Positions 19,316 to 51,089 of a stretch of DNA of 51,441 nt are shown here, in pieces (within the stretch, counting starts at the first letter, position 1; each line of letters starts with the position of its first letter). Below the pieces are notes generated by a model that ran no database searches, had not been told where the DNA came from, and worked only from the letters and a program-made list of their open reading frames with translations. The stretch lies in sequence record SRR31156797_10402; one strand, 5' to 3'. A program made the position numbers and the translations under genes.

Positions 19316-20260
19316 ATGAAAGAGGAAAAGGAATTCTATGAAAGGTTAGAAAGGAAAGGGATCTCAAGAAGGGATTTCATGAAGTACTGTGGGGTGGTTA
19401 CTGCTACCATGGGCCTCTCTTCTTCCTTTATACCCCAGGTTGCGGAGGTCTTCGCGGCCCCCAAACAGCGGCCGCCGGTCATATGGCTCCATTTTGGGGA
19501 ATGCACCGGCTGTTCCGAGGCGACCCTCAGGTCCATGTATCCCTGGATCGACGAGTTGGTCCTTGAAATTCTGGATATTGCCTACCATGAAACCATTATG
19601 GTCGCTTCCGGATTCCAGGCTGAAGATGTGATTCATTCAGCCACCAAAAAATATAAGGGGAAATATATTTGCGTGGTGGAAGGGGCCGTCGCCACCAAGT
19701 ACAACGGCGCCTATGGAAAAATTGGCGGTCGCACTTTTCTTGAATCCGCCAGAGATATTGTGCCCAATGCCGCCGCCACCATCTGCATCGGTACCTGCTC
19801 GGCCTACGGGGGTATTCAAGCGGCCAAACCCAATCCCGGCGGATATAAAGGTGTCGGCGACGCTCTGGGCGTCAAGACCGTCAATATCCCCGGTTGCCCT
19901 CCCAATCCCATCAACCTGGTGGGCACCATCGTCAACTATCTGCTCCTGGGTAAACTGCCGGCACTGGACGACCTGGGAAGACCTCTTTTTGCCTATGGAA
20001 AAACCATTCACGATCAATGTCCCAGAAGGTCCCATTACGAAAACGATGAATTCGTGGAAACATTCGGCTCCAAAGAAGCCAGCATGGGATACTGCCTGTT
20101 CAAGGTGGGCTGTAAAGGGCCTGATACCTACAACAATTGCGCCACCGCCAAATACAATGACGGCACCAGCTGGCCCGTTGAAGCGGGACATCCCTGTATC
20201 GGCTGCAGTGAGCCCGCGTTCTGGGACAAAATGACCCCGTTCTTTGAAGAAAGCAAGTAA
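19316..20260 (+). CDS. hynB: periplasmic [NiFe] hydrogenase small subunit (group 1)
   Basis: Tat signal SRRDFMK; ECTGC, GTCSAYGG, PGCPP, HDQCPR, CLFKVGCKGP, HPCIGC. Confidence 0.93.
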   Translation: MKEEKEFYERLERKGISRRDFMKYCGVVTATMGLSSSFIPQVAEVFAAPKQRPPVIWLHFGECTGCSEATLRSMYPWIDELVLEILDIAYHETIMVASGFQAEDVIHSATKKYKGKYICVVEGAVATKYNGAYGKIGGRTFLESARDIVPNAAATICIGTCSAYGGIQAAKPNPGGYKGVGDALGVKTVNIPGCPPNPINLVGTIVNYLLLGKLPALDDLGRPLFAYGKTIHDQCPRRSHYENDEFVETFGSKEASMGYCLFKVGCKGPDTYNNCATAKYNDGTSWPVEAGHPCIGCSEPAFWDKMTPFFEESK

Positions 20261-20320
20261 CCGGAACGACCGTTAAGGTTCTGAATGAAAAAATACTCTT
20301 AAGAAAAGAGAGGAGAAAAT

Positions 20321-21967: not shown

Positions 21968-21977
21968 TAATTATCCA

Positions 21978-22013
21978 TTGGCCGCCGGCTTCACAGGGGA
22001 GTTCGGCGGCCAA
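21978..22013 (+). terminator. GC-rich stem-loop after hydrogenase structural genes
   Basis: TTGGCCGCCG...CGGCGGCCAA 10-bp arms; no immediate T-tract. Confidence 0.55.
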
Positions 22014-22127
22014 AACCTTCCTTTTTGACAGGCCGTTTCCGGTAAAAAAACTGTCAACCGAAAAACCCTCTTTTAATGAAGAAAAGCAATTTATGGCAAG
22101 ATCTCGCATAAAGTATGCCAACACCCT

Positions 22128-24866: not shown

Positions 24867-24971
24867 GGCACAAAATCCTTGAATGATCACCCACGGTACC
24901 GCTATACTGGAAATTGACCGTCTCTCATAAATACCTTAAAAAAGGTTTTTGTGAACATTTTGGTGATTTTA

Positions 24972-25523
24972 ATGAAAGAAAAACAGATAACCGTAATGGG
25001 TGTCGGCAATATCCTGTTCACGGATGAGGGTGTGGGAGTCCGGGTGCTTGAAACCTTGAGCGCACAATATGATTTCCCCCCCAACGTGGCATTGGTCGAT
25101 GGCGGCGTTTTGGGGATGAATCTGCTGGGGACTATTTCGGAAGCGGATCATCTGATTGTGATTGATGCGGTTCGTAACGGCCGGGAGCCCGGTACCCTCT
25201 ACCGTCTGGAAGGGGAGGATATTCCCCGGCGTGTTCTTGCCAAGAATTCCCTCCATCAGGTGGATCTTCTTGAGGCCCTTACTTTCTGTGAGGCCCTGGA
25301 TAAACATCCCGAAACCCTGATCATCGGGATTGAACCCAAGGATATCAAAACCGTTGGCCTGGATATGACGCCCACAGTGGCGGAAAAAATGGAGGCCATG
25401 GTCGAGATGGTGATTATGGAACTGAAACTTCTGGGGGTTGCGGCTTCACGTCGTCCGGTTCCAGCGAAAAACGGATCGGAAAAGCATTGCGAAGATGGCG
25501 CTTTCGGTGTTCCGAAGATATAG
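24972..25523 (+). CDS. hydrogenase maturation endopeptidase (HyaD/HupD/HynC family)
   Basis: GVGNILFTDEGVG, VDGG, IDAV, SLHQ; start may be GTG 24951. Confidence 0.92.
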   Translation: MKEKQITVMGVGNILFTDEGVGVRVLETLSAQYDFPPNVALVDGGVLGMNLLGTISEADHLIVIDAVRNGREPGTLYRLEGEDIPRRVLAKNSLHQVDLLEALTFCEALDKHPETLIIGIEPKDIKTVGLDMTPTVAEKMEAMVEMVIMELKLLGVAASRRPVPAKNGSEKHCEDGAFGVPKI

Positions 25524-25641
25524 GAACCGGTAAGCCTTGAAAAATCTCAACACATGGAAGCCGATCCATTATGCCCCATGCAAAACCGCAAAGATTTCGT
25601 ATATTTTATAACATTGATTGGGTTATTGGGAGAAAGAAATT

Positions 25642-25875
25642 ATGTGCCTTGCCATACCCGCCAAATTGATCCGTATTGATGAACACATGGGCACCGTTGA
25701 CATGGATGGGACACAGAGGGATGTCAGTCTTCTTCTGCTGCAGGACGCGCAAATCGGAGATTATCTGATCGTCCATGCGGGTTTTGCCATTCACCGCATC
25801 GACGAGACGGAAGCCCGTGCCTCATTGCAAATTCTGCGTGAAATGGCGGCCCTGCCGGAAGCCCAAAAACCTTGA
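25642..25875 (+). CDS. hypC: hydrogenase maturation chaperone HypC
   Basis: Invariant N-terminus MCLAIP, GDYLIVHAGFAI. Confidence 0.95.
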   Translation: MCLAIPAKLIRIDEHMGTVDMDGTQRDVSLLLLQDAQIGDYLIVHAGFAIHRIDETEARASLQILREMAALPEAQKP

Positions 25876-25953
25876 ATTTGTAGATCAATCCCTTTAATTT
25901 CCGCCCTCTTATCATATATGATCCCAAGACACAAAAGGCTTTCCGGTAATACC

Positions 25954-25983
25954 TTGACACCGGTTACCGGATGCCACTATAAT
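25954..25983 (+). promoter_or_regulatory. consensus sigma70 promoter for cytochrome c3
   Basis: TTGACA-N18-TATAAT. Confidence 0.7.
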
Positions 25984-26067
25984 CCCCGTGATTTGTTCGG
26001 CTTTGATCCCGGTTATCCTATGGGATCAAAGACACAAAAATTTTTCGAGGAAGGAGGTGAAACCTAA

Positions 26068-26487
26068 ATGATCAAAAGATTCTGTATTCTCTTTACGGCA
26101 GTTTTTACCGGGTTGGTTTTTTTCTCGGTGGGTACCCTTATTGCGGCCGACAAACAGGTTGTTCCCGATACCGTTACCATCGAAAATAAAGGCTACAAGA
26201 AAGATAAGAAACGTCCCGTACCCTTGAGCCACAAAAAGCATGTAGATGAATATGGTGTGAAATGTGTTGATTGCCACCATGTTTACAAGGATGGCAAGAA
26301 CGTGTGGAAAGAGGGAGAACATGTGGACAAATGCAGCAAATGTCATGACCCTAAAAAGAACACCAAGGAAGGCGGTGTTAAGGTTATGAAGCTGCAGAAT
26401 GCCTACCACAAGAACTGCAAGAATTGTCACAAGGCAGAGAAAAAAGGTCCTTTCAAGAAATGTAATGATTGCCACGTCAAGAAGTAA
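26068..26487 (+). CDS. tetraheme cytochrome c3 (class III)
   Basis: Signal peptide; SHKKH, CVDCHH, CSKCH, AYHKNCKNCH, CNDCH; Lys-rich; RBS AAGGAGG. Confidence 0.93.
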   Translation: MIKRFCILFTAVFTGLVFFSVGTLIAADKQVVPDTVTIENKGYKKDKKRPVPLSHKKHVDEYGVKCVDCHHVYKDGKNVWKEGEHVDKCSKCHDPKKNTKEGGVKVMKLQNAYHKNCKNCHKAEKKGPFKKCNDCHVKK

Positions 26488-26527
26488 ATGCGTCAGCCCT
26501 CACGCGCATAAAGCTTCAGTAAAGTGC

Positions 26528-26566
26528 AAAAGCCGTCTTCCGGTCAATTCGGAGGCCGGCTTTTTT
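26528..26566 (+). terminator. intrinsic terminator of cytochrome c3 gene
   Basis: AAAAGCCGTCTTCCG...CGGAGGCCGGCTTTTTT. Confidence 0.75.
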
Positions 26567-26607
26567 AATGGCTCATTTACCGATAATGATGATGCCGCCA
26601 CCAAACA

Positions 26608-26650
26608 AAAGCGCCGCGGTTTGACCTGAGGTCAACAGCCGCGGCGCTTT
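26608..26650 (-). terminator. terminator of dsr/ferredoxin transcript
   Basis: AAAGCGCCGCGG...CCGCGGCGCTTT 12-bp arms with inner TTGACC/GGTCAA. Confidence 0.75.
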
Positions 26651-26679
26651 GGTTATTTTTGTTCGGATGTGGAAGTCTG

Positions 26680-26868
26680 TTATATTTCGGTAATGGTAAT
26701 GGCTTCGTGCTCACACACTTCAATACAGCTTTCACAACCCAGACATTCCTCCGCGTTTACGGGATCGGATTTTTCATCCACCATCTCGTAGACATCCACG
26801 GGACAAACTTCGATACATTCTTCACAACCTTCACATTTTTCTTTATCGACAACCACTTCGTAACCCAT
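26680..26868 (-). CDS. 2x[4Fe-4S] ferredoxin
   Basis: CEGCEECIEVCP and CLGCESCIEVC; acidic 62 aa; RBS AGGAGG. Confidence 0.93.
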   Translation of the reverse strand: MGYEVVVDKEKCEGCEECIEVCPVDVYEMVDEKSDPVNAEECLGCESCIEVCEHEAITITEI

Positions 26869-26991
26869 TTAATTTATCCTCCTGATTTATGTTGAGTACC
26901 TTACATAAATAAAAAATTTAAACGCTTTTGCAATGGCGGCTTAATTAACAGAGTGGGACCCCTGTGTCAAGCCTTTTCATCTTAGCTTTGT

Positions 26992-28149
26992 TTAAGCAGC
27001 CGCTTCCTCTTTAATGGAGACGGCAATTTTGTACAGAATGGTCAGAACAAAAAATCCTACCGCCAGAACGCCGATGGTGATCAGTATCTCAAGAGTGGTA
27101 GGCCAGTAAGGTGTTACGGTGTCAAACATGTTGGGCGTAAATCCGCCCACGATCAGCCCGAGCCCCTTATCAATCCAGGTCGCGATAATCACTGAAATAC
27201 ACGCAACCGCCAACGTATCCTGGTTACGCCGTGTGGCCGGCACGATCAACAGAACCAGAGCAATCACTGCAAATCCCGTAGCGGTCCACATCCAGGGGGC
27301 CAGTTTTCCATACCCGTCCAGGCCATGGAAAAGAAATTCGATGGAATGCATATGCCCCGGGATCTGGCTGTAAAAAGCGGTAAATATCTCAAGCAGAAAG
27401 AAAAAAACATTTAAGATCATGGCATAGGCGATAATACCGCCCAGCGTCCGGAGCTGTTCCTTGCCGGGATCAAATTTGGTAACCTTCTTGACGATCAGGC
27501 ACAGCAGCACCAGCAGGGCCGGTCCCGCACAGAAGGCGGAGGAAAGGAACCGCGCCGCCATGATGGCGGTCAACCAAAAATGCCGACCGGGAATACCTGC
27601 ATACAGAAATGCCGTCACCGTATGAATGGTGAAGGCCCAAGGGATGGAAATATAAGCCAGAACCTTGATCCATTTCTGATACTTCACCCCTTTTCTTTCA
27701 GCCGCCAGCACGTTCCATCCCACGACGATATTGAGCAGCAGATAAACGTTCAGGACAATCATGTCCCAGAACAGAATGGAGTTGGGCGTAGGATAAAGAA
27801 TAACGTTCATGATCCGGACCGGATTTCCCAGATCCACGAACACAAAGAGAAGACACATGAGGATGGCGGCAATGGCCAGAAATTCACCCAGAATGGTAAT
27901 CCTGCCAAAAGCCTTATAATCATGCAGGTAATAGGGCAGAACCACCATTACACCGCCTGCGGCGATGCCCACGAAGTAGGTGAGCTGCCCGATATAGAGC
28001 CCCCATGATACGTCTCTGCTCAAACCCGTAATTCGAAGGCCTTCAAAATACTGATAGATGTAACATCCGGCACCTACCCCAATCAAAACCAACAGAAAAA
28101 CGAGCCATGACCAATACCCTGTTGTTCCTTTTAGTGCTCTGTCAAGCAT
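26992..28149 (-). CDS. dsrP: DsrP, NrfD/PsrC-family membrane subunit
   Basis: TGLSRDVSWGLYI, VDLGNP, IHTVTAFL, multiple TM; last gene of dsrMKJOP. Confidence 0.92.
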   Translation of the reverse strand: MLDRALKGTTGYWSWLVFLLVLIGVGAGCYIYQYFEGLRITGLSRDVSWGLYIGQLTYFVGIAAGGVMVVLPYYLHDYKAFGRITILGEFLAIAAILMCLLFVFVDLGNPVRIMNVILYPTPNSILFWDMIVLNVYLLLNIVVGWNVLAAERKGVKYQKWIKVLAYISIPWAFTIHTVTAFLYAGIPGRHFWLTAIMAARFLSSAFCAGPALLVLLCLIVKKVTKFDPGKEQLRTLGGIIAYAMILNVFFFLLEIFTAFYSQIPGHMHSIEFLFHGLDGYGKLAPWMWTATGFAVIALVLLIVPATRRNQDTLAVACISVIIATWIDKGLGLIVGGFTPNMFDTVTPYWPTTLEILITIGVLAVGFFVLTILYKIAVSIKEEAAA

Positions 28150-28157
28150 GACCTACC

Positions 28158-28973
28158 TCATATAATATAAAATACGTTCGGCCCGGTACCCAAAGCGGGT
28201 TTTCTTCTAATAGAATAGTGGTCCCGGAGCAGTTTTCTAACATTGGACTCTGGATTTGCAAGATCCCCAAAATTCATCGCCTTGACTTTAATTTTGTCAC
28301 ACGCCTGCACACACGCGGGAAGCTCTCCCTTGGAAACCAATTCGGTGCAGAAGTTACATTTTTCAACGACGCCCTTAGATCTTTCCGGATAAGCTTTGTT
28401 GGTGGGAAAACCGGGGTTCAGTTTTTTAGGCGCCTTCCTGGGATTTCCCCAGTTAAAGCTCCTTGAACCATAGGGGCACGCCGCCATGCAGAACCTGCAG
28501 CCGATGCAGCGGTGCATATCCATGGCGACAATACCGTCCTGTTCCCGTTTGAACGTGGCCTGGGTGGGACATACCCGGACGCAAGGGGGATTGTAACAAT
28601 GGTTGCATAAGAGGATAAACGGCTTACCCTCCACACCCTCGTCAACAAATTCGTTGGGTTGCTCCGGAAATACATGCTCATACTTGTCCTGCCAGATCCA
28701 TTTGACCGCATGCTGGGGGGTTCCCCAGTCCGGCACGTTGTGCTCCAGATGGCAGGCCACCATGCACTCTTTGCAGGCTTTCTTGTCCTGCTGGGCCAGG
28801 CATTTCCGCATATCAATGACCATTGACCACCGTTTCCCCTGGGTTAAAGGGATGCCTTCAGTAGAGGCTTCCAATTCCCCCGGGGCGAGGATATCAATGG
28901 CCGCTGTTCCCCCGAGACCGAACAAGGTGGCATAGCCGGCTATCTTCAGGAATTCTCTTCTGTCTACCCCCAT
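28158..28973 (-). CDS. dsrO: DsrO, Tat-exported Fe-S subunit
   Basis: DRREFLK Tat motif; CNHCYNPPCVRVCP, CIGCRFCMAACP, KCNFC; start at MGVDRR 28973. Confidence 0.92.
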   Translation of the reverse strand: MGVDRREFLKIAGYATLFGLGGTAAIDILAPGELEASTEGIPLTQGKRWSMVIDMRKCLAQQDKKACKECMVACHLEHNVPDWGTPQHAVKWIWQDKYEHVFPEQPNEFVDEGVEGKPFILLCNHCYNPPCVRVCPTQATFKREQDGIVAMDMHRCIGCRFCMAACPYGSRSFNWGNPRKAPKKLNPGFPTNKAYPERSKGVVEKCNFCTELVSKGELPACVQACDKIKVKAMNFGDLANPESNVRKLLRDHYSIRRKPALGTGPNVFYII

Positions 28974-29359
28974 TACTTTTTCTCCTCCGGCGCAATATGA
29001 CAATCCCAGCAGTAAGGATTAACGCTCAAATAATTGTGACATTGGTCACAGAATTTGGTTTTGTCCGAATGGCAATCCATGCAGGTCACCTGCAGGCTCT
29101 TATAATAGACCTTGCCATCAGCCGCTTTGTAATAGCGCTCACCATCCCTCACAGCCGTGTGCCGCCATTCGTCCAGCATGGAAAAGTGTGATTCCCTCAT
29201 ATAGGTCTTCGGCGCCACACACACTTTTGCTTCCTTGGCTTTTTCCGTTAACTGCGGGTCGGGCGCTTTGGCGGAAGACCCCGCGTTATAGATAAAAGGG
29301 GAAAGGAACAGACCGATACCAATAATCAGGCCAACAATAATCTTGCCTCCATCATACAT
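28973..29359 (-). CDS. dsrJ: DsrJ triheme cytochrome c
   Basis: CV...MRESH, CMDCH, CDQCH, CWDCH; start MYDGG at 29359. Confidence 0.92.
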   Translation of the reverse strand: MYDGGKIIVGLIIGIGLFLSPFIYNAGSSAKAPDPQLTEKAKEAKVCVAPKTYMRESHFSMLDEWRHTAVRDGERYYKAADGKVYYKSLQVTCMDCHSDKTKFCDQCHNYLSVNPYCWDCHIAPEEKK

Positions 29360-30983
29360 CCTCTTCATCCTCCATTCCCGGCAACGGTTCTAAACGTAAA
29401 TCAGTGGTTCGTTTCTTCTCTCCATCCAGTATCAAGGCATTGCCCACCAATTCGTGAAGTCCCGTGACGTCCATTCCCGGCACCCAATAATCCATGGATG
29501 TGGGCAAAACCGCCCGGTCGATGGCGCAGATGCAGGCCAGCATGTTGACGCCGTACTTTTCATGGACATATTTCACGGCATTGGCCCTGGGTAGCCCCCC
29601 CCGCATGCGAAGCTCCATGTCTTCGCCGGCATTTAGGCCCGAACCGCTGCCGCAGCAGAAGGTCTGCTCGCGAATGGTTTCAGGGGGCATATCATAGAAA
29701 TTGTTGCAGACACTGTTCAAAACGTATCGCGGTTCCTCAAGAAACCCCATTCCCCTTGCCGTGTTGCAAGAATCGTGAAACGTTACGGTTTTGTTATCAT
29801 TACGGCTTGGGTCAAGTTTGAGTTTATTGTTTTTGATAAGATCCGCCGTGAACTCCACCAGATGAATCATCTTTGTGGACTTGGCATTTTCGAAAACCGT
29901 CCCCGTAATGGGGGAGACCGGTGTTTCCAGGAAGTCGGCCGGTCCGTTCCAAGTGTCCATATACTGATTCAAGACCCGCCACATGTGACCGCATTCACCG
30001 CCGATGATATATTTGACCCCCAAGCGCTTGGCCTCATGGTACATTTTGGCATTCAGCTTTTTGGCCATTTCATGGGATGTGAAAAATCCGAAATTGCCCC
30101 CCTCTGAAGCGTAGGTGCTCCAGGTGATATCGAGTCCTAAGCCTTTAAGATAATGGAATAGTATAAGATATCCCATGGCCGTATAGGTTCCGGGATCGGC
30201 AAAGACGTCTCCTGATGGCGTTAAAAAGAGGATCTCGGCGCCTTTCCGGTTAAAATCCGGCTCAACCCTGACGCCGGTGACATCCTCAATTTCATCCACG
30301 AAGAAATCGATCATATCCACAAAGGCATGGGGCTGTATCCCCAGATGGTTACCGGTGCGGCTGCAGTTGGCAACCGGGCCCGCAATCCAGTCGATGTTGA
30401 GGCCCACAAGATTTGTCAACTCCCTGCCCAGGATGGTGATTTCCGCCGTATCAATGCCGTAGGGGCAAAAGAGCGAGCAGCGACGGCACTCGGTACATTG
30501 ATAGAGGTAATACCAAAGCTCTTTGAGGGTATCCTCCGTTAACTCGCGTCCCCCTGCAAATTTTCCCAAGAATTTGCCGGCGGTGGTGAATTCCCCGCGA
30601 TAAATGGACCGGAGAAGTTCCGCCCGCATGACCGGCATATTTTTGGGGTCGCCCGATCCGATGAAAAAATGGCACTTATCGGCGCAGGCACCGCATCGCA
30701 CGCAGATATCCATAAAAATCTTCAGGGAGCGATATTTGTCCAGCCGGTCCTTAAATCCTTCCAGAATAATGCTCTTCCAGTTTTCCGGGAGTTGCCAGTC
30801 ATCATCCGTGGGATTCCACTCTTTCGCAAAAGGCATCCCCACGGCGTTGGTATTCTTGGGCTTGGCGCCGTAACAATAGATGCCCGGCTTGATCTCCGAT
30901 TTCTTGTTCAGCCACCCTTGCTCAAAGAGAGGCCGATAATGATCAATTGTTGCAGTTTCTGTTGCTTTGGGGGTATCTGCCAT
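29352..30983 (-). CDS. dsrK: DsrK, HdrD-like Fe-S catalytic subunit
   Basis: CVRCGACADKC, CTECRRCSLFCP, GECGH, FHDSC, TFCCG, CAID. Confidence 0.95.
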   Translation of the reverse strand: MADTPKATETATIDHYRPLFEQGWLNKKSEIKPGIYCYGAKPKNTNAVGMPFAKEWNPTDDDWQLPENWKSIILEGFKDRLDKYRSLKIFMDICVRCGACADKCHFFIGSGDPKNMPVMRAELLRSIYRGEFTTAGKFLGKFAGGRELTEDTLKELWYYLYQCTECRRCSLFCPYGIDTAEITILGRELTNLVGLNIDWIAGPVANCSRTGNHLGIQPHAFVDMIDFFVDEIEDVTGVRVEPDFNRKGAEILFLTPSGDVFADPGTYTAMGYLILFHYLKGLGLDITWSTYASEGGNFGFFTSHEMAKKLNAKMYHEAKRLGVKYIIGGECGHMWRVLNQYMDTWNGPADFLETPVSPITGTVFENAKSTKMIHLVEFTADLIKNNKLKLDPSRNDNKTVTFHDSCNTARGMGFLEEPRYVLNSVCNNFYDMPPETIREQTFCCGSGSGLNAGEDMELRMRGGLPRANAVKYVHEKYGVNMLACICAIDRAVLPTSMDYWVPGMDVTGLHELVGNALILDGEKKRTTDLRLEPLPGMEDEEDV

Positions 30984-30985
30984 GG

Positions 30986-32056
30986 TTACTCCTTTTCTCC
31001 TTGTTCGGCTGTTTCGTCAAGCCCTTTATCCACGGGCAGACCAGCTTCTATCATAGCCTCTCTGAACTCATCTTCGTATTCCGCATAGGTGTGAAACTTA
31101 ACAGGGTAATTCCATGGATTCACATGCCTGACAAAACGGTTGTTATTGGACATATTCCTTGTGGGACTCAGGAATATTCCGCTCAGATGCATGAGTTTGC
31201 TGAACGGAAAATAGGCGATCAAAACGCACAATACAAAGAGGTGGATATAGAATAGTACACCGATCCCGTCGGGCACGGCGGGAGAAAACTTAAAAAGCCC
31301 GATGACCAGTTCCTTGACTTTGGTAATGTCAACCCGTAACCAATAACGCATGAGCATGCCGGTAAAACCAAGGGTCAGAATCAGCATCAGTGGAAAATAA
31401 TCGGCCGGAAGTGATAAATAGCGGATCTGAGAGTAAAGAATCCTCCTGAGCAATAGCCAGGTAACCGCCGCCATGAGCAGCATGTCGGTTAGATACACCC
31501 CGGGAAGGCCGAAACCGTTGAAAGGCGCCGCACCCATCTGCATGAATCCGTCAAGGCTCTCCAGAACGAAAACAAAACCCGGCACCGGCTCCATGAAAAA
31601 TCGAAAGTGTCTAAGGAAAATCACGAGGAAAGAATAATGGAAGAGGATCGCCGCCAGCCAGAGCCACTTTTCCCACTCGTAGTTGATTCTGGGTGCGCCA
31701 TCCACTTTGCTGTACTCAAGCCGCGTATTTCGAAACAGAGACCTGAAGGTGAGAACTTCGAACAACATTCTCAACACCACGCCGCCCTTCCCTTTGGGAT
31801 TGTCAATGGGGTTGCTCTTAATCCAGGGGAAGGACCACATCTGGCCGGCCGTGGTGGGAATCCGGTAAGGGACCGGCGAACGTCCCCAACCCAGAACACG
31901 CACGATGATGCCCACAATGAAAGTGGCCAGGGCCGCATAAGGAATGACAACCCCGAAGAGGGTCTTCAAATCCAGTGCCCCCACACCAATCCAAGGGACC
32001 AAAACCACGACCATCACCGCGAAGGATGAAAACAGAATACTCAATACAAAATTCAT
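30986..32056 (-). CDS. dsrM: DsrM, NarI-like cytochrome b subunit
   Basis: PVPYRIPTT, FHYSFLVIFLRHFRFF, YIHLF...FPFSKLMH, SPTRNM. Confidence 0.93.
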   Translation of the reverse strand: MNFVLSILFSSFAVMVVVLVPWIGVGALDLKTLFGVVIPYAALATFIVGIIVRVLGWGRSPVPYRIPTTAGQMWSFPWIKSNPIDNPKGKGGVVLRMLFEVLTFRSLFRNTRLEYSKVDGAPRINYEWEKWLWLAAILFHYSFLVIFLRHFRFFMEPVPGFVFVLESLDGFMQMGAAPFNGFGLPGVYLTDMLLMAAVTWLLLRRILYSQIRYLSLPADYFPLMLILTLGFTGMLMRYWLRVDITKVKELVIGLFKFSPAVPDGIGVLFYIHLFVLCVLIAYFPFSKLMHLSGIFLSPTRNMSNNNRFVRHVNPWNYPVKFHTYAEYEDEFREAMIEAGLPVDKGLDETAEQGEKE

Positions 32057-43918: not shown

Positions 43919-44725
43919 TCACAAGGTTTCGGATTTACCTTGGCACGAGGAGCGCTTTGTTAGCATCTTGATAAAACGAGCAAATTTCTTTCGAGCTTCA
44001 TTGCCCATAGTTATTTCGTGGGACGTAGTTTCCGAAACCCATGATGGTATGGATATATCATTTGCTTTCATGCTTTTGATGCAATTCTTGGTTATTACTC
44101 CTCGAGAGGTGCTTTCGCCAAAAGTAGCCAAATTATTGATAGTCACAAAAATTTTATGAGACTTTGGTTTTTCTATTTGCTCCTTAAAAGAGTCCATCGT
44201 TTTGGCTGAGGGTATCTTTTTTGGAAATAGCTCAAATAGATAACGTATTACTTTGACCTTCAAATACTGATGTATCCATATTTGCTTATAATTCTTTCTT
44301 TCTAGGTAAACGTCACCTTCAGTATTGATCATTTTTGTGCCAGTTAGATTTTCATCTATCAGCATGCCTCTGCACCGGCAAAATAATAGTCCGCACATAT
44401 CTTCTATATTATCTGTAAATAACCATTGATGTATTTTTGCAATTTTTTTAGTATTAAGTTGAATTGGATACTTATCGTCTATACACCAATAAATCATCTC
44501 TTCATCATCCAAACCATCAAGTAATGTTAGAATTGTACCTCTAATGTCAGAAGGACATTGATGATACTGAACTCTATTAGTATGTATGGTTGGAGACAAT
44601 TCTTGATATGGAACTTGGAATATATATGGATGAGAAGGCCAAAGAGTTTCGTAACTAAGAATCATGTGATCCGTAAATTTTCGATATTTGTCATAAGTTA
44701 ACACAATCGCTTTAATTGGTGTCAT
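43919..44725 (-). CDS. AT-rich hypothetical protein, possibly GT-A glycosyltransferase-like
   Basis: 268-aa ORF; N-terminal AIVLTYD strand and IYWCIDD acidic motif as in GT-A folds; function uncertain. Confidence 0.5.
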   Translation of the reverse strand: MTPIKAIVLTYDKYRKFTDHMILSYETLWPSHPYIFQVPYQELSPTIHTNRVQYHQCPSDIRGTILTLLDGLDDEEMIYWCIDDKYPIQLNTKKIAKIHQWLFTDNIEDMCGLLFCRCRGMLIDENLTGTKMINTEGDVYLERKNYKQIWIHQYLKVKVIRYLFELFPKKIPSAKTMDSFKEQIEKPKSHKIFVTINNLATFGESTSRGVITKNCIKSMKANDISIPSWVSETTSHEITMGNEARKKFARFIKMLTKRSSCQGKSETL

Positions 44726-44737
44726 ATGGGGCCTTTC

Positions 44738-44816
44738 TGTTAACGCTAAAGCTCATGGACGACAATTGAGAGCATCGGAATTGACAGACGAGTACAGTGT
44801 TTGTCTAGCGTTACTG
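44738..44816 (-). repeat. attC-like imperfect inverted repeat
   Basis: TAACGCTA (44741-48)...TAGCGTTA (44806-13); minus strand ends CATGAGC-TTTAGC-GTTAACA just before RBS and ATG of next gene. Confidence 0.35.
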
Positions 44817-44836
44817 AAATATTACAAATATTTAAA

Positions 44837-45631
44837 TTAACCTAACCATTCTCTGCAATCCCAGTTTAATTCTAACTCCAAATCTTTTATCGTATTTTTA
44901 AAAATTGATATAAGGTAAACCCTCTCTTTATCATTCATGCTTAATACATATGGTATTGAATGTACATTCTTCTTTGCAATTCTATTGAATTTTGCTACAC
45001 GCAGAAACGCGCACACACGATTAAGGGTTTCTTCTGGCTTTTGTTTTAAATCTTCACTTTTTATAATTAAGATTCTATTTTTAGGGAAGTAGACCCAAAG
45101 CCTTCTTAGCTGTTTTAAATAGAATCCCCTCTCAATATAAGAATATCTTCTGTCTTGCTTTGGAAGTGTCTCACAGCACCTTTTCTTTTCCTTTTGTATA
45201 GCCTCCCAAAACGACAAATTGTCAGCATGTATTGAGCGATTCATATTCCAATGTGAATAAGCTCTTTCGATGGGGTTTCTTAAGAGAACGATTAGTTTCA
45301 TATTAGGATTGTATTCCCAAATTCTTTTTGGTGCATCTTTCCAATACATGTAAATAGGAGTTGCTTCGCCCAGAATCTTATGAGATTTTTTAGGGCTGAA
45401 CCAAGAAAGATACTTGGAATAGTCAGGTTTGTCGTTAGAAAAGAACCCTTCGTTATCAAAGAAATGGACTTCTTTTTTGTTCGCCATACAAATTTCAGGA
45501 TGCATCCTCAGGTAGGCGTCTAAGGCTGAAGTCCCTCCCTTCTGAGTGCCACAGATAATAAAATCAACTGTTCGTTTGGTTGCGAAAAGCGTTTTAGCTT
45601 TTCGCTTTATCCTCATGATTACCTGTCTCAT
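44837..45631 (-). CDS. PAPS-dependent sulfotransferase (heparan-sulfate sulfotransferase-like domain)
   Basis: 5'-PSB GTQKGGTSAL, KEVHFFD, GEATPIY, 3'-PB LRNPIERAYSHW; AT-rich. Confidence 0.88.
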   Translation of the reverse strand: MRQVIMRIKRKAKTLFATKRTVDFIICGTQKGGTSALDAYLRMHPEICMANKKEVHFFDNEGFFSNDKPDYSKYLSWFSPKKSHKILGEATPIYMYWKDAPKRIWEYNPNMKLIVLLRNPIERAYSHWNMNRSIHADNLSFWEAIQKEKKRCCETLPKQDRRYSYIERGFYLKQLRRLWVYFPKNRILIIKSEDLKQKPEETLNRVCAFLRVAKFNRIAKKNVHSIPYVLSMNDKERVYLISIFKNTIKDLELELNWDCREWLG

Positions 45632-45652: not shown

Positions 45653-45679
45653 TGGTCTTACCCACAAAAAGTGGACACG
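45653..45679. mobile_element. isolated IS3-family terminal inverted repeat
   Basis: TGGTCTTACCCACAAAAAGTGGACACG closely resembles the IS3 end as recalled (TGATCTTACCCAGCAATAGTGGACACG); no transposase attached. Confidence 0.6.
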
Positions 45680-45714
45680 TTTAATGTCCCCTTTGGGGAA
45701 TGGGAGAAAATCCC

Positions 45715-45899: not shown

Positions 45900-46907
45900 C
45901 TAACCGGTTACTAACTCAGTGATTTTTTTGGCTGTTGCTACGACTTCGGTCAAACCCTCAGGCCGAAATACCCTAAAAACCGGGATTTTTTGAAGCAGTG
46001 TGCCCACCTTGAAGAACTCTCTGGCGCGCATATCATCATTCAAGACGTAAGGGGCATAGGTGTGCGCAGTAACATGCACCATTGCCTCTTTGGGTTCCAA
46101 ATGTTCAATGCGAACGGTTTTCTCGCTTTCTCTTGGCGCCAACACAAAAACAGCCGCCAAGGGAACCGGTTGGCTCTGAAAATGGAACCGGCGACCATGA
46201 TAATCTTTATTCAAGTCCAGATACCGTTTTTCAAAATCGTTTAGGACTGGAGGAAAGTCTAATGAGTTCGGGATGTTGAGCGAATTAATGGTTGTTTGCC
46301 ACAAACGCAAACGAGGATATCCAGGTTGAACTATGATGTCTGATTCATTCTGATTCAGGGGCGCAATGTCGTCGCTAAGAATTGGATGTCCCTGGTAAGC
46401 CAGTTGCGCTATCAAGGTTGATTTGCCCGCGCCCTTGTCGCCAATCACTGCCACTGTCCGACCGGCAATAACCACTGCTCCGGCGTGTAATGCCAGAATG
46501 TCTTGTTGGCGCAAGGCGCAACCGATGACCGGGCCCAAAAGATAAGCGACAACATTGGTGTCGGCGACTGGTTCACGTTGGTGAATTTCAACGCACCGCC
46601 CATTTTCTTTTACCAAAAAGTCTACCCAGCCCCGAATTCCTCCGAAATGGCGAAGACACAAACCGTGTTCGTCGGCTAAGCGCCAGACTTGCAGATAAGG
46701 CGGCCCTTGCTGTGTCATTGCCGGGCTTTGGTAGAGTAAGTCAGCAATGATTGGTACATCTTTGGTCGGTTCAAAGTCAATGGAAACTTGTCCATTTGGG
46801 ATTTCTCCCCCTTGAAAACGCCATAAACCAGGGATTTCCCGATCGGCGATGATGTGGAACCCGTAAAGCTGATAAGCGTGAGGATATTCAGGGGGCGATG
46901 TGGTCAT
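45900..46907 (-). CDS. HPr kinase-like lasso peptide kinase (PadeK/ThcoK type)
   Basis: LALHAGAV catalytic His, Walker A GDKGAGKST, ILSDD, PGYPRLRLW; alternative start 46943. Confidence 0.85.
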   Translation of the reverse strand: MTTSPPEYPHAYQLYGFHIIADREIPGLWRFQGGEIPNGQVSIDFEPTKDVPIIADLLYQSPAMTQQGPPYLQVWRLADEHGLCLRHFGGIRGWVDFLVKENGRCVEIHQREPVADTNVVAYLLGPVIGCALRQQDILALHAGAVVIAGRTVAVIGDKGAGKSTLIAQLAYQGHPILSDDIAPLNQNESDIIVQPGYPRLRLWQTTINSLNIPNSLDFPPVLNDFEKRYLDLNKDYHGRRFHFQSQPVPLAAVFVLAPRESEKTVRIEHLEPKEAMVHVTAHTYAPYVLNDDMRAREFFKVGTLLQKIPVFRVFRPEGLTEVVATAKKITELVTG

Positions 46908-47943
46908 AGATACGTCCGGTTTGTACCGTTTGATGCAGATCAATCACAGCCTGGCTGGCTTTTTTCAGTTGTTGGTCAATTTCCGGCACCCCAATCACCG
47001 GGCGTGTTGGCAGCGGATTACTCTCTGCCAGCGCCGCCAATAGTCTGAAAAAGTATTGGCGGGTGGGGTTGCGCTGTTTTTGGCGTTGCCGGACAATGGC
47101 TTTGTATTCATCGGTTGAGTATTTTCGATAGGGCCGGTAAGCGCGATAATCACGGATAGTGCGGCATAGCGAAGCAGGCAGCCAGGATTTGATCATTTGC
47201 TTGAGTTTGTGCTTGAACGCAGGCGTTGACGTTGGTTGGCTGAAAGCCAGAAAACTGAAGCCGCCCAAATGGATGAGCGATGGAATATGCCGGTAGATTA
47301 CTGTTTCACCGCGGGCTTGCAGTAGCAAATTGAGCGCTTTCCCGGTGTCGTAAATGGTCTTTTCCATATTCAGGCTATGAAATTGCTGCCGGATTTCCGG
47401 CGTCAATTGCGACCAGTGTCTCTCTTCAAAGCCGGTTTTTAATTGGTTCATCACCCCCTGTAAGGCCGAGGTCCGGTAGATAGAGAAAGGGCTGCTTCCC
47501 AGGCATAATCCGTTTTCGGCGGTGGTGTGCAAACCGCTCATGATCTGAAAACCTTGAGGCAGTATTTCATCGTGGGCAGTAACCCACAGCGGTGGAGCGG
47601 CAAAGGTGGCGGCGTTATTTGCCAGATTGGATTGCGCTGTTTCCATGAATGGACCGGTCGCCAGAATGTCGGAGTCCATAAAAGCAAAATAATCGGTTTG
47701 GTGCATTTGCTGCAAAAGGTTCAGAACTCGACTATGGCGCAAACTGGTTCCCCCCGGCAGATTGCAGTAGCTCAAACGGGGATGTTGTTGGCAAAGCTTC
47801 TCTAAGAAATTCTGTTCCGGCGGGAAGCAGCCGTTGCTCACCAATCTGAAAGCGCAATCTGACCAGTGCAGCAAACTCCACACAAAAAAACTGAGATACT
47901 TTACGGTGCCGGGGGTGTAAACAATGTTAAAGGTAACCGTCAT
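46888..47943 (-). CDS. putative GT-A fold glycosyltransferase
   Basis: N-terminal beta strand, LVSNG, HSRVLN...YFAFMDSDI (DxD), late HLGG; translationally linked to neighbours. Confidence 0.6.
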   Translation of the reverse strand: MTVTFNIVYTPGTVKYLSFFVWSLLHWSDCAFRLVSNGCFPPEQNFLEKLCQQHPRLSYCNLPGGTSLRHSRVLNLLQQMHQTDYFAFMDSDILATGPFMETAQSNLANNAATFAAPPLWVTAHDEILPQGFQIMSGLHTTAENGLCLGSSPFSIYRTSALQGVMNQLKTGFEERHWSQLTPEIRQQFHSLNMEKTIYDTGKALNLLLQARGETVIYRHIPSLIHLGGFSFLAFSQPTSTPAFKHKLKQMIKSWLPASLCRTIRDYRAYRPYRKYSTDEYKAIVRQRQKQRNPTRQYFFRLLAALAESNPLPTRPVIGVPEIDQQLKKASQAVIDLHQTVQTGRIYDHIAP

Positions 47944-47949
47944 TTGCTT

Positions 47950-48663
47950 CTAAGGTCTAAATAAGGAGTTTGCGTTCATTAAATATTCGTAAATCGGACG
48001 GCAAGAGTGCGGCACTTGGTCTGGCGTAAAATGGTAATGCGCCAGTTTATGATTGACAAAACGCTGTAGTTTTCTGAGCTTGGGAGATAGACCAAGCCGA
48101 TGCGCAATTTGCGCTATGTCCTGCAAATAGCTGCTCTTATCCTGCATATCATATTCAATGAGCGGGAAAGGGCGCCGTTGGTGGCGCGCCATCAAGATCG
48201 CGTTGCAGTGGATCCACAACTCCAGAGCGTGGCTTTCCCTGAGGCTGTTGCGGTGCATTAAAGAGCGCGCTACCGCCAAGGGGTGTCTGAAGGTACCCAC
48301 CAGCACGCAAGGGGTTGGAGCCAAGTTTTCCCAGTGATCCAGCAGCAGCAGAGTTCGAGGGTCTTTAAATCCGCCCGACGATTTACTGGTGAGCGATTGA
48401 GCGATTTCCAGTAACTGCTGGCGATGAAAAGGATGCAACTGAACCGGTTCTTGCGGCGGCTGATGCCAACTTGCCCGGTTTAGTCCCAGAATTTGATCGT
48501 GAATTTTGACGACATCAGGTCTTTCAAAATAGCCTTTGGCATTAAACCGCCCGGTGCGCCGCACATCGCCCAGATACAACCCGCAACGCTCCAATGCGCC
48601 AGCCAAACAACTGGTGCCGCTACGATGCATCCCCAGAATTACTACCAATTGAGGCGTGGCCAT
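47950..48663 (-). CDS. sulfotransferase family protein
   Basis: GMHRSGTS PAPS loop, NAKGYFE, FKDPR, RHPLAVARSL; ATG abuts the cyclase stop. Confidence 0.85.
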   Translation of the reverse strand: MATPQLVVILGMHRSGTSCLAGALERCGLYLGDVRRTGRFNAKGYFERPDVVKIHDQILGLNRASWHQPPQEPVQLHPFHRQQLLEIAQSLTSKSSGGFKDPRTLLLLDHWENLAPTPCVLVGTFRHPLAVARSLMHRNSLRESHALELWIHCNAILMARHQRRPFPLIEYDMQDKSSYLQDIAQIAHRLGLSPKLRKLQRFVNHKLAHYHFTPDQVPHSCRPIYEYLMNANSLFRP

Positions 48664-50463
48664 CTACAGGGTTCCATTTTCGGCGCGCAATAAGAGCAGA
48701 CCTTGCATCATCCCTTTGAGAAGGGCAAAGGTTTGCTGCGTTACCGACCAATCCAGGGGAGTCTGTAATTGCTTCAGCGCAGTATCCATTCGCGGCACAT
48801 CCAGATATTCCTGAACCAATGGGGAACGGTCAAAAGAATCAAGAACTGCCGCCGCTTCATCGTAGTGATCCCGCACCCGGCAGGCAATATCGGCGGATTG
48901 CAGACCCCGGCAGCCCTGCCACAAAACATTGTGTGGTAATTTGCCTTTCATCGCCAGGCGAACCAGTAATCGCTCTTGTCCGTTCCGGGTAAATTGTTCC
49001 TGGGGCAGGCCCAGACAAAACTCAATGATGCGTTTATCAACGGGGGGGTCGGTAATTTGCAGGCCAAAAGCAATTCCAAAGGCAGCAGAAGCTGCCTGCG
49101 CCTTGCCGGTGCGGAAGTATTTGAACAGACCGTTGTACTCATTGCCCGGTTTCTGAACGGAGGTAAACGACGTGTCAGCTTGCAGAAGACTACGCAGCCT
49201 CTCCCGGCGCACAAACGTATGCTCCTGATGGTTTCGGGCCCGATAGCGGTCTGCCCAACTTGCCGGTAACAGGGGCTTAACCACTTGGCTCTTAATGGTT
49301 TGAAAAATGGAAGCGTGCTGTTGCCGCTGCCAGGCGATTATCTCACTGCCCCAACGCCGCCAGTCCCCGTGCTTTTGCAGCGCACGCAGATAGGCAGACC
49401 GGTCTCCGTTGAAAGAGATGGTAAAATTACCGCCCCAACCGCTCAGTAGCGTAGTTATCCCTTGAGACGCCGCCGCTTCAAAAGAAGCTAACGCCCAAGA
49501 CATATTACCCGCCCCGTGCACCGGTTCGGCAAGTATCTCCAGACTTCTGTGCAATGCTGCAATGGGGCTGACATCCGCCGTATTGATAAAGCGGATATCA
49601 ATATTGGGGTATCGTTGGCCAATGGCTTTAACCCAAGGGCTTTCATCGCCGCAGCGGGCGGGCAGAATGACAGATGCCGGATCATATTGCGGCACGGCAC
49701 TGAAGGCAATTAACCGTTTGCCTCGTTTGGTCAGCGCAGGTGCGGCCAGCGCCGCCACCGAACTGGAATCAAGCCCGCTGCTCAGTAAGATGCCGGTCTG
49801 GCCGTTCGCCGGTAAACGGTCTCCAACCGCTTGCCGGTACAGATCAGTAAAGACGTCCAGATAGTCTTCGTCGCGCGGGTAGCGCACTGCGGGCGCCTCT
49901 TGCGGATGCCAGTAACGCCAGCCTTCAATTCTGTCACGCGTTACCAACATCGCATGGGCCGGCGGAAGCCGGTGAATATTCTGGTAAAAGGTCACATCTC
50001 CGGCTAGTCCCAGCCAATTCGCCGCCAGGGCGGACAGATTGAGTTCAACCGGTACCTGCGGTTGTTGCAGCAAGCCTTTCATGGTGCTGGCGAAGGCAAA
50101 GATTTGGTCCGAATGGTAATAATAAAGCCCGCTGTTGCCAAAATGATCGCGGGCAAGGAAAAGGTGTTGTTGTTTCGAATCCCAGATGGCAAAAGCCCAG
50201 TCGCCCAGCAAATGGCTTGCAGCATCTAGCCCCCATCTTTTATAAACGTTTAAAACTAAAGCAGAATCGTCCGTACTTTGCGCCTCTGTCCTTGACAAGC
50301 CAAAAAAAGAAACCAAATCCGTACGATTATCCAGTCGTCCGTAAAACCAAGCCCCATATTCGCCAATCTGCCGATCATCATTTGGCGAAGGTGTGGTTTG
50401 ATCAAATTGAAACGAGCCCTGTAACAAAGTATTGGCTGGATGCTGCCGCGCTGTCCTGTGCAA
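48664..50463 (-). CDS. lasso peptide cyclase (asparagine synthetase-like, protein C)
   Basis: GRLDNR, LGDWAFAIWD, ARDHFG, LSSGLDSS ATP loop, SGWGGNFTIS, DKRIIEFC; no N-terminal glutaminase Cys; next to precursor and B1/B2. Confidence 0.9.
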   Translation of the reverse strand: MHRTARQHPANTLLQGSFQFDQTTPSPNDDRQIGEYGAWFYGRLDNRTDLVSFFGLSRTEAQSTDDSALVLNVYKRWGLDAASHLLGDWAFAIWDSKQQHLFLARDHFGNSGLYYYHSDQIFAFASTMKGLLQQPQVPVELNLSALAANWLGLAGDVTFYQNIHRLPPAHAMLVTRDRIEGWRYWHPQEAPAVRYPRDEDYLDVFTDLYRQAVGDRLPANGQTGILLSSGLDSSSVAALAAPALTKRGKRLIAFSAVPQYDPASVILPARCGDESPWVKAIGQRYPNIDIRFINTADVSPIAALHRSLEILAEPVHGAGNMSWALASFEAAASQGITTLLSGWGGNFTISFNGDRSAYLRALQKHGDWRRWGSEIIAWQRQQHASIFQTIKSQVVKPLLPASWADRYRARNHQEHTFVRRERLRSLLQADTSFTSVQKPGNEYNGLFKYFRTGKAQAASAAFGIAFGLQITDPPVDKRIIEFCLGLPQEQFTRNGQERLLVRLAMKGKLPHNVLWQGCRGLQSADIACRVRDHYDEAAAVLDSFDRSPLVQEYLDVPRMDTALKQLQTPLDWSVTQQTFALLKGMMQGLLLLRAENGTL

Positions 50464-50490: not shown

Positions 50491-50634
50491 TTACGAAGAG
50501 CCTCCCATTACGCCGTCATTCGAGAAGCCGGAATCACCTGTTTGTGTTTGTTGTTGGGCGGTTCCGTAGTCTTCGATCTTTGGAGGAGTATATCCCTTTT
50601 TGTCGGTTTGGTTTTGGGTAGTCTCTTTATTCAC
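50491..50634 (-). CDS. lasso peptide precursor (protein A), 47 aa
   Basis: RBS GGAGG 6 nt before GTG; MNKETTQNQTDKKGYTPPKIEDYGTAQQQTQ-TGDSGFSNDGVMGGSS; leader fits YxxPx(L/I)xxxGxxxxxT; Asp at core position 9. Confidence 0.9.
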   Translation of the reverse strand: MNKETTQNQTDKKGYTPPKIEDYGTAQQQTQTGDSGFSNDGVMGGSS

Positions 50635-50657: not shown

Positions 50658-51089
50658 TTAATCCATTGATTTGCCAAAGGCGTACTCAAAGGCGGTGTAT
50701 TTTTGCCGCACCCGGGGGCCGGCATTCAGGGCTGCGCCTTGATACTCTACCCAGGCGTGGGCCTGAAAAGCGCCTTGGTGCTGGCGGACGCCAACGCGTA
50801 ACTGGGTGTGAATGTCACGTCGCTGTAACAACCACCACAACAACACCGATTGCGACAGGCAATTGCCCCGGTACAGAGCCCGTCTTTTTGCCCAGCGCAT
50901 CATTTGGCCGCAGTGTTGGGCAACGGATGCCTGTTGAACACCGTTGACTGGGCGACGCCAGTTGGGAACGTGCTGTAACAGGGACAATGTTCGTTGTAAG
51001 CCTAAAGCCCACAAACCAAACGCCATCGGCGGCAACAACAGGCTGATTTTTAGTTTTGGCCAAAGCGTATTGATTTTGTGCTTGATCAT
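50658..51089 (-). CDS. lasso leader peptidase B2 (transglutaminase-like)
   Basis: NCLSQS catalytic Cys, LRVGV, FQAHAWVE. Confidence 0.92.
   Translation of the reverse strand: MIKHKINTLWPKLKISLLLPPMAFGLWALGLQRTLSLLQHVPNWRRPVNGVQQASVAQHCGQMMRWAKRRALYRGNCLSQSVLLWWLLQRRDIHTQLRVGVRQHQGAFQAHAWVEYQGAALNAGPRVRQKYTAFEYAFGKSMD

Follow-up and report, generated by a model that had tools for sequence, protein, structure and literature searches.

A lasso peptide operon of a rare subtype that pairs a kinase with a GT-A fold protein and a sulfotransferase: possible phospho-glyco-sulfo tailoring of the C-terminal serine

We analysed a DNA stretch of 51,441 nucleotides from sequence record SRR31156797_10402 (the window hereafter, meaning this whole stretch), whose right end carries a self-contained lasso peptide operon of seven genes and ~5.5 kb on the minus strand, in the order B1, B2, A, C, ST237, GT351 and K. 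The last three genes, which encode a candidate sulfotransferase dependent on 3'-phosphoadenosine 5'-phosphosulfate (PAPS), a GT-A fold glycosyltransferase-like protein and an HPr-kinase-like lasso peptide kinase, are inherited together and make up the tailoring module of a lasso subtype that is rare. According to the best-supported reading of this module, which we put forward tentatively and which may well hold, the C-terminal Ser of the precursor would be phosphorylated, then glycosylated and finally sulfated.

In the proposed pathway, K would phosphorylate the hydroxyl of the C-terminal Ser, probably while the precursor is still linear and with B1 assisting, by analogy with the kinases PadeK, ThcoK and BsfK. 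GT351, as a metal-dependent GT-A enzyme translationally coupled to K, would add a sugar at the precursor C-terminus, most likely onto the phosphate, in a role comparable to that of PsmN in the biosynthesis of pseudomycoidin, and ST237 would sulfate this sugar. Afterwards or in parallel, B2 and C would remove the leader and close a macrolactam between T1 and D9. The expected product is a 16-residue peptide with a 7-residue tail of small side chains and a bulky, strongly anionic phospho-glyco-sulfate end.

[quoted passage not shown] It is followed by the transglutaminase-like leader peptidase B2 (50658..51089; 143 aa; PF13471, E 7e-19; NF033537, E 4.3e-20, above cut-off), by the precursor gene A (50491..50634; 47 aa), whose GTG start lies 5 nt after GGAGGA, and by the lasso macrolactam cyclase C (48664..50463; 599 aa; PF00733 (Asn_synthase), E 3.6e-26; PF13537, E 4e-22), whose match to NF033535 (E 2e-88) stays under the curated cut-off of 525 bits. 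The split B1 and B2 together with the Asn-synthetase-like cyclase, as found by the Pfam and NCBIfam scans, identify a lasso cluster. The three tailoring genes are ST237 (47950..48663; 237 aa; PF13469, E 0.004), GT351 (46888..47943; 351 aa; Glycos_transf_2, E 0.018) and K (45900..46943; 347 aa from a TTG start; PF07475, E 1.3e-4; TIGR04352 (HprK_rel_A), E 7e-9). The stop of C (48664) abuts the start of ST237, 6 nt separate ST237 from GT351, and GT351 and K overlap. An earlier note, made from the letters of this DNA, had read a kinase, a glycosyltransferase and a sulfotransferase at 45900..48663; three tightly packed minus-strand open reading frames (ORFs) lie exactly there, and the three assignments are borne out by the family comparisons that follow. 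Taken singly, all three proteins stay under curated Pfam cut-offs, and each was therefore examined through its relatives.

The start of K that matches its relatives is the ATG at 46907, which leaves an overlap of 20 nt with the GT351 stop. The protein carries the motifs LHAG (residues 152-155), GDKGAGKS (168-175) and SDD (190-192), and the H...GxxGxGKS...DD core of lasso peptide kinases is invariant in all seven aligned sequences (K and six relatives). A profile built from these seven matched HPr kinase chains in the PDB (E 8.8e-6), residues 151-212 of K aligning with HPr kinases of solved structure over their catalytic core and presenting the same residues as HPr kinase 1jb1; against Pfam Hpr_kinase_C, K scores 22 bits (cut-off 33.3). 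The catalytic set of the lasso kinase BsfK comprises H148-G163-G166-G168-K169-S170-D186-D187 (PMC10368454; published systems are compared here and below from extracts of the papers cited), and K has its counterparts, namely the His, the Gly-rich P-loop with Lys-Ser and the Asp-Asp pair. PadeK/ThcoK-type kinases, with a proteobacterial example in Sphingobium yanoikuyae, are likewise HPr-kinase homologues with a His, Lys and Asp-Asp set that target the C-terminal Ser of the precursor (PMC8498205, PMC9266682). K resembles them by motif, and the seven precursors of the loci that pair a kinase of this kind with GT351 end in Ser; for PadeK/ThcoK-type clusters themselves, glycosylation or sulfation is never shown in the extracts of these papers. 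In a scan limited to one genome per species, 155 relatives of K were found and 80 were kept, of which 51 have a B1 relative and 46 a cyclase relative nearby by tblastn; a plasmid collection gave only distant kinase matches. Judging by its catalytic residues and gene context, K is a member of the lasso-associated kinase family.

In a large protein collection, 29 clusters of homologues share 32-50% identity with GT351. A scan of genome contigs with the single sequence found no relative, while an alignment-based scan did; the Erythrobacter GT351 query had no match in the plasmid collection. The alignment contains invariant columns at D90-S91-D92 (30/30 sequences), at YDTGK 198-202, including D199, and at H225. 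PF00535 was matched at E<=0.1 by 18 of the 30 family members (best 3.6e-6), and GT351 itself reaches 15.4 bits against a gathering score of 23.3; we therefore refer to it as a GT-A fold, GT2-like protein and not as a member of PF00535. When the family was aligned by hhalign with bona fide GT2 sequences (E 4.6e-5), its DSD was placed on the GT2 DAD, and NGC was found where GT2 enzymes usually have their first DD (DDGS). The same comparison lent no support when made with the GT2 of 277 aa that related clusters encode (probability 1.2%), and the best hit of the GT351 profile in the PDB by sequence only was a phage baseplate protein at E 0.98.

An AlphaFold2 model made from the 30-sequence alignment (mean pLDDT 92.4, pTM 0.89) retrieved at least 500 matches in a Foldseek search of the PDB. 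The top rows, at probability 1.00, comprise SpsA, chondroitin polymerase K4CP, RmlT, TarP, WbbM, GlyE, the UGGT catalytic domain and mannosylglycerate synthase, RmlT and TarP being teichoic-acid glycosyltransferases. From about residue 240 the model continues into a helical C-terminal extension with no counterpart in small GT2 enzymes. GT351 is thus modelled with a Rossmann-like GT-A fold bearing its DxD at residues 90-92, as the earlier note had supposed, and would act in glycosyl transfer. It could instead be something other than a Leloir glycosyltransferase and transfer a nucleotidyl or sugar-phosphate group, the kinase then acting on that group or on another residue. Such a role would fit the replacement of the first GT2 DD by NGC, the occurrence of a relative (in L004) beside LicD and a CDP-glycerol glycerophosphotransferase, and the fact that sugar-nucleotidyltransferases share the fold, RmlA appearing at rank 35 of the Foldseek matches. 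In a second structural comparison, however, all 50 listed matches were glycosyltransferases, and the DxD, the later invariant Asp and the invariant His fit metal-dependent GT-A enzymes, which makes this alternative very improbable in our view.

PAPS-dependent sulfotransferases bind their cofactor through a 5'-phosphosulfate loop and a 3'-phosphate loop of the RxxxxxxxS type. Both have counterparts in ST237, at residues 11-18 (GMHRSGTS) and 125-134 (FRHP...S, with R126-H127-P128...S134), and both are invariant in 12/12 family sequences. PF13469 (Sulfotransfer_3) was matched by 11 of these 12 (best 3.4e-10), ST237 itself scoring 17.8 bits against a gathering score of 27. The single sequence found nothing useful in the PDB, and the family profile gave weak matches (E 0.13-0.49) to chains 2z6v, 2zq5 and 4gox. 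The first two were deposited as uncharacterised proteins and 4gox is a polyketide-synthase chain; we take all three to be sulfotransferases, on which their entry titles are silent. The aligned stretches in 2z6v and 2zq5 cover both loops, which in 2z6v fall on GMPRTGTT and RDP...S (whole-sequence E 0.13). That ST237 is a PAPS-type sulfotransferase is reasonably supported by these family motifs.

The alignment-based scan yielded 49 loci with GT351 relatives, in six of which a K relative directly follows. The full series of B1, B2, one or more precursors, C, ST237, further genes in some cases, GT351 and K was found in four loci, from Desulfosarcina (L003), a gammaproteobacterium (L005), Erythrobacter (L024) and Parasphingorhabdus (L044); L001 and L002 end just upstream of GT351, and L127, which came from the kinase scan, is likewise cut. 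Counting the window, GT351 adjoins K in eight distinct loci that span Chloroflexota, Thermodesulfobacteriota, Gamma- and Alphaproteobacteria. The called GT351 and K ORFs overlap by 4 nt in L001, L003, L005, L024 and L044, and by 32 nt in L002. In a quick maximum-likelihood tree of GT351 (49 rows, L127 being too short to be included), the seven K-adjacent rows form one group (SH-aLRT 98), a grouping equalled in 0/500 label shuffles. The eight GT-adjacent rows also form one group in a FastTree phylogeny of the kinases (72 rows; support 96, with a long-branch warning), and the pairings (L001,(L002,L003)) and (L024,L044) were recovered in both trees. The module therefore appears to have moved as a unit among Chloroflexota, Thermodesulfobacteriota, and Alpha- and Gammaproteobacteria.

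ST237 follows the same distribution. Relatives were found in all five GT351+K loci that have upstream sequence and, by tblastn, in 0/74 kinase loci without GT351; a sample of 15 kinase loci (L127 and 14 that lack GT351), with 77 neighbour proteins, showed no match to a sulfotransferase family. The five lasso-linked ST237 proteins group together (support 99) with that of L027, a locus from Desulfarculaceae, as an outsider of uncertain placement. APS (adenosine 5'-phosphosulfate) kinase was detected in 5/5 genomes with related clusters and in 11/14 controls, and its presence says little, since the controls also mostly carry it.

The related clusters vary in gene content. In Desulfosarcina (L003, 3002-4828) a fusion protein of 608 aa with two PF13469 stretches joins the ST237 homologue to another sulfotransferase domain, and this fusion is separated from GT351 by the 277-aa GT2 and one more sulfotransferase. 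The sphingomonad versions (L024 and L044; also L135 and L136) carry four sulfotransferases, two glycosyltransferases and one 2-oxoglutarate- and Fe(II)-dependent (2OG-Fe(II)) oxygenase. The Erythrobacter cluster is flanked by a divergent ABC exporter and an HlyD-like gene upstream of B1 and by a TonB-dependent receptor after K, and that of Parasphingorhabdus by a serine recombinase upstream and by rmlA, rmlC and rmlD downstream.

The closest characterised parallel is pseudomycoidin, from the psmCAKB1B2ND cluster of Bacillus pseudomycoides (Zyubko et al, 2019, PMC6993621), also a lasso operon with an HprK-like kinase for the C-terminal Ser, whose phosphate then receives a hexose. There the sugar requires PsmN, an NTP_transf_5-type protein without glycosyltransferase motifs, whereas here a GT-A protein adjoins the kinase. 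In addition, the extracts describe no sulfotransferase for pseudomycoidin, and the core predicted in the window is much shorter (16 aa). By tblastn, PsmN-type NTP_transf_5 proteins (PF14907) are encoded in 0/8 GT351+K loci and in 41/74 kinase loci without GT351 (Fisher p 0.005, computed on loci that are related and not independent). As the earlier note had claimed, the window encodes no nucleotidyltransferase: none of the families matched the 39 other window ORFs (E<=1e-5) or the eight cluster ORFs (E<=0.1), and tblastn with seven PF14907 proteins found none up to the window end, 89 bp upstream of B1. Lacking a PsmN-like protein, the operon does not belong to the pseudomycoidin type, although it may work like it. 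In the literature searched, the unusual PsmN was the only enzyme found to glycosylate phospho-Ser.

Lasso leaders usually contain the motif YxxPxLxxxGxxxxxTx, and the ring-forming Asp or Glu usually stands at core position 7-9. The Y..P.L...G.....T. pattern sets the register in all precursors of the group: the leader of the window precursor carries YTPPKIEDYG...TQ, in a register common to the precursors of L003, L005, L024 and L044, and cleavage is predicted after ...QQQTQ. The window precursor accordingly reads YTPPKIEDYGTAQQQTQ followed by TGDSGFSND..., which gives an acid at D9. The predicted core, TGDSGFSNDGVMGGSS, has 16 residues, one more than if it were read from G1; its ring would close between T1 and D9 and leave a tail of seven residues, GVMGGSS, without a bulky plug residue. 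The other predicted cores are TGSVGGNWDGMVSS (L003), GTNGGNTNAEGNGNS (L005), GAGSGIPAADFGSS (L024, from two identical genes), and SGNFTGAAGDLGSS and SRPRGGSGADFGSS (L044). All are rich in Ser and Thr, and their tails consist of 4-7 small residues. In L005 (6243-6395), L024 (3956-4087 and 4302-4433) and L044 (4019-4156 and 4395-4532) the only acidic core residue is at position 10, with 4-5 residues after it, which is outside the usual 7-9 ring rule and the usual lasso tail length; acids at positions 10-11 are also present in many cores of other kinase loci.

A C-terminal Ser is present in all seven precursor genes of the five GT351+K loci, and six of the seven end in Ser-Ser, including that of the window, for which the earlier note had reported this ending. 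The same note's remark that the core has no Tyr also applies throughout, no Tyr occurring after the leader in the window precursor or in any of the seven cores. The 'sulfatyrotide' RaxX resembles the present case in that a PAPS-dependent sulfotransferase, RaxST, acts on a ribosomal peptide, but the RaxST target is a Tyr (PMC9484694). The tail of the L005 precursor, GNGNS, contains a single hydroxyl residue; therefore, if both the kinase and the glycosyltransferase act on the tail, they would share this residue, which mildly favours a sugar on the phosphate over two neighbouring sites.

This bears on a second model, in which K would phosphorylate the last Ser, GT351 would directly O-glycosylate the penultimate Ser or another Ser/Thr, in the manner of glycocin glycosyltransferases, polypeptide GalNAc transferases and IgtG, and ST237 would sulfate that sugar. 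A precedent exists in the davasins, where the glycosyltransferase IgtG decorates a lasso peptide Ser; IgtG acts directly on the mature lasso peptide, and the extracts of that report describe neither a kinase nor sulfation (Sun et al, 2025, PMC11912497). We regard two separate sites as rather unlikely, because K, GT351 and ST237 are all retained in L005, where the precursor tail offers one Ser only, because GT351 and PsmN-type proteins are mutually exclusive beside K, which fits a common role on the phosphate, and because K and GT351 are translationally coupled.

Outside the kinase-linked group, GT351 relatives belong to a different setting. Of the GT351 loci, 43 have no kinase, and 19 of these carry ST237- or ST1-like genes by tblastn. 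Pfam scans covered the 19 of these 43 loci with long flanks (121 proteins) and detected glycan-assembly genes in 12 (GT1, GT2, GT4 or GT47, Wzm/Wzt, flippases, LicD/TagF-type or RmlD) and sulfotransferases of Pfam types 1-4 in 12; 17 of the 19 have one or the other, and the remaining two have a DegT aminotransferase only. These sulfated glycan or polysaccharide loci thus resemble the lasso module in having the same GT family and sulfotransferase families side by side, but they contain Wzm/Wzt transporters, flippases and several GT1, GT2 or GT4 proteins and lack lasso genes and the kinase, and the lasso-linked GT351 proteins form a clade separate from theirs. Gene context and phylogeny taken together, GT351 and its sulfotransferase companions appear to be a pair from sulfated-glycan pathways that was taken over by the lasso cluster, and this derivation is our main reason for placing the sulfate on the sugar and not on the peptide. 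The Desulfarculaceae locus L027 (1-7242), in which no lasso gene was seen, encodes an MsbA-like ABC exporter, an ST237-like protein, GT2_4, a sulfotransferase, GT351, a further sulfotransferase and a GT2; its ST237 is the one that clusters with the lasso-linked proteins.

Two further alternatives concern the targets of GT351 and ST237. GT351 and ST237 might be glycan-pathway genes that merely travel with the lasso cluster and do not act on the peptide, as could be suggested by the 41 of 49 GT351 loci that are of the glycan type, without lasso genes, and by the rmlA, rmlC and rmlD genes after the L044 cluster. However, the two genes fill the interval from cyclase to kinase without intergenic space, Chloroflexota, Thermodesulfobacteriota, and Gamma- and Alphaproteobacteria all preserve this arrangement, the GT and K trees are congruent, and no other glycan-assembly gene is present among the window ORFs; we consider passengers of this kind quite improbable. 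Alternatively, ST237 could sulfate a peptide Ser or Thr hydroxyl directly and independently of any sugar. The Ser/Thr-rich cores would offer acceptors, and the separate grouping of the lasso ST237 proteins with L027 (support 99) means that the acceptor may have changed. Nevertheless, among lasso loci ST237-like genes occur only where GT351 is present, the wider ST237 relatives are located in glycan loci, and the literature searched contained neither a sulfated lasso peptide nor direct Ser/Thr sulfation of a bacterial ribosomal peptide. Direct sulfation of the peptide is therefore improbable.

Joint action of K, GT351 and ST237 on the peptide, which the earlier note had offered as a hypothesis, gains support from the gene packing, the co-inheritance of K and GT351 in eight loci, the mutual exclusion of GT351 and PsmN-type proteins and the conserved C-terminal Ser. 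Several points weigh against sequential phosphorylation, glycosylation and sulfation of this residue. The evidence consists of genes and a predicted fold, and from these we infer the chemistry throughout, that is, every step, its order, linkage and site. K, GT351 and ST237 all fall below curated cut-offs (Hpr_kinase_C, GT2 and Sulfotransfer_3). A GT-A fold alone fixes neither the donor nor the acceptor nor glycosyl transfer itself, and a nucleotidyltransferase, RmlA, is among the structural matches of GT351. With Ser-Ser termini, two separate sites are equally conceivable. In four of the eight loci (the window, L001, L002 and L127) the sequence is cut near the cluster, so that a lack of PsmN-type genes is weak evidence there, and the window, which ends 89 bp upstream of B1, contains no exporter gene. 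Finally, relatives with extra tailoring genes (a second GT2, two to four sulfotransferases and a 2OG-Fe oxygenase) indicate that the three enzymes of the window may be a reduced or a different set.

Individual elements of this combination have been noted before. Sulfotransferase genes beside lasso kinases are mentioned, without study, in the extracts of two reports (PMC8498205, PMC4289311), and a putative, uncharacterised sulfotransferase is merely mentioned at the start of some Firmicutes PadeK/ThcoK-type clusters (PMC8498205, PMC9266682). A 'clearly recognizable glycosyltransferase' adjoins a PsmK homologue in Stanieria (PMC6993621), and a GT2 co-occurs with a kinase in Butyrivibrio (PMC7533575). 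No sulfated lasso peptide was found in the literature searched or in the extracts of a 2026 review (PMC13352647).

Other kinase loci in our scan are organised differently. In Acidobacteriota and cyanobacterial lasso loci (L058, L078, L084, L094, L099, L120 and others) a PRMT-like methyltransferase and a nucleotidyltransferase of PF14907 regularly come after the kinase, and many of the precursors end in K-T-x and not in Ser. A further arrangement, comprising B1, GT1, kinase, GT2, B2, an ABC exporter and PF14907, was observed in L081 (7490-15668) and in the Nostocales loci L082, L086, L087, L089 and L102-L105. Their two or three precursors share the core start QVGGSGGFGTTT and do not end in Ser, and tblastn found no cyclase within the 20 kb fetched; these loci may encode a linear, non-lasso product.

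Downstream of K, between the lasso operon and an amino-acid ABC transporter operon, lies a pair of low-GC genes (43919-45631; GC 0.35-0.36, compared with 0.46-0.54 in the lasso operon and roughly 0.5 in the surrounding DNA). ST1_264 (44837-45631, minus strand) is a Sulfotransfer_1 gene (PF00685, 3.4e-21), and unk268 (43919-44725, minus strand) encodes a 268-aa protein with no Pfam or NCBIfam match. Membership of ST1_264 in the pathway is not supported: its GC is 0.36, the best 120 of its 1706 homologues are 57-77% identical and come from unrelated taxa where the source is named, and its identity to the ST1 genes that lie within related lasso clusters reaches only 31-33%. Likewise, unk268 was rejected as a hidden pathway glycosyltransferase, since its contexts in six loci are unrelated and without lasso genes; its homologues form 323 clusters from various phyla, with identities of up to 77%. 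The two resemble single genes that are shared widely, and no flanking repeats of note were found around the pair. Between K and ST1_264, at 45673-45689 on the minus strand, GGACATTAAACGTGTCC and the T-rich run after it could form a weak hairpin of the terminator type; terminator-like sites in the region are no commoner than in shuffles.

Elsewhere, the window encodes a branched-chain amino-acid ABC transporter and no tRNA. Pfam matches at 19316-32056 indicate the small and large subunits of a NiFe hydrogenase with maturation genes, and the minus-strand matches of the NrfD, 4Fe-4S and nitrate-reductase-gamma types in this interval can be read as a DsrMKJOP-like set. Because of the hydrogenase and this set, the host is probably a sulfate-reducing, Desulfobacterota-like bacterium.

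The known C-terminal decorations of lasso peptides are phosphate, phosphate-hexose, methyl ester, acetyl and epimerisation, and peptide engineers favour this class as a scaffold. Our prediction in its fullest form is that the product would be the first lasso peptide known to be sulfated, a macrolactam of 16 residues with a phosphodiester-linked sulfated sugar on its C-terminal Ser, with a GT-A enzyme replacing the PsmN-type protein, the glycosyltransferase and the sulfotransferase recruited together from sulfated-glycan pathways, and the end group serving as plug; taken as a whole, this is possible but doubtful. For pseudomycoidin, the bulky C-terminal group was proposed as a lock for a weakly plugged tail (PMC6993621). 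Since the tails of the present cores, with their 4-7 residues, are too short and small-sided to be held by side chains, the anionic end group would here itself be the plug, and it would probably also be the business end of the molecule. The operon is small and self-contained, and the prediction is therefore open to direct test by heterologous expression. If correct, it would add a sulfated sugar on phosphoserine as a new lasso end group, provide a recognisable glycosyltransferase for phosphopeptides, and offer a clear case in which a pathway for a ribosomal peptide has borrowed two enzymes of glycan tailoring.

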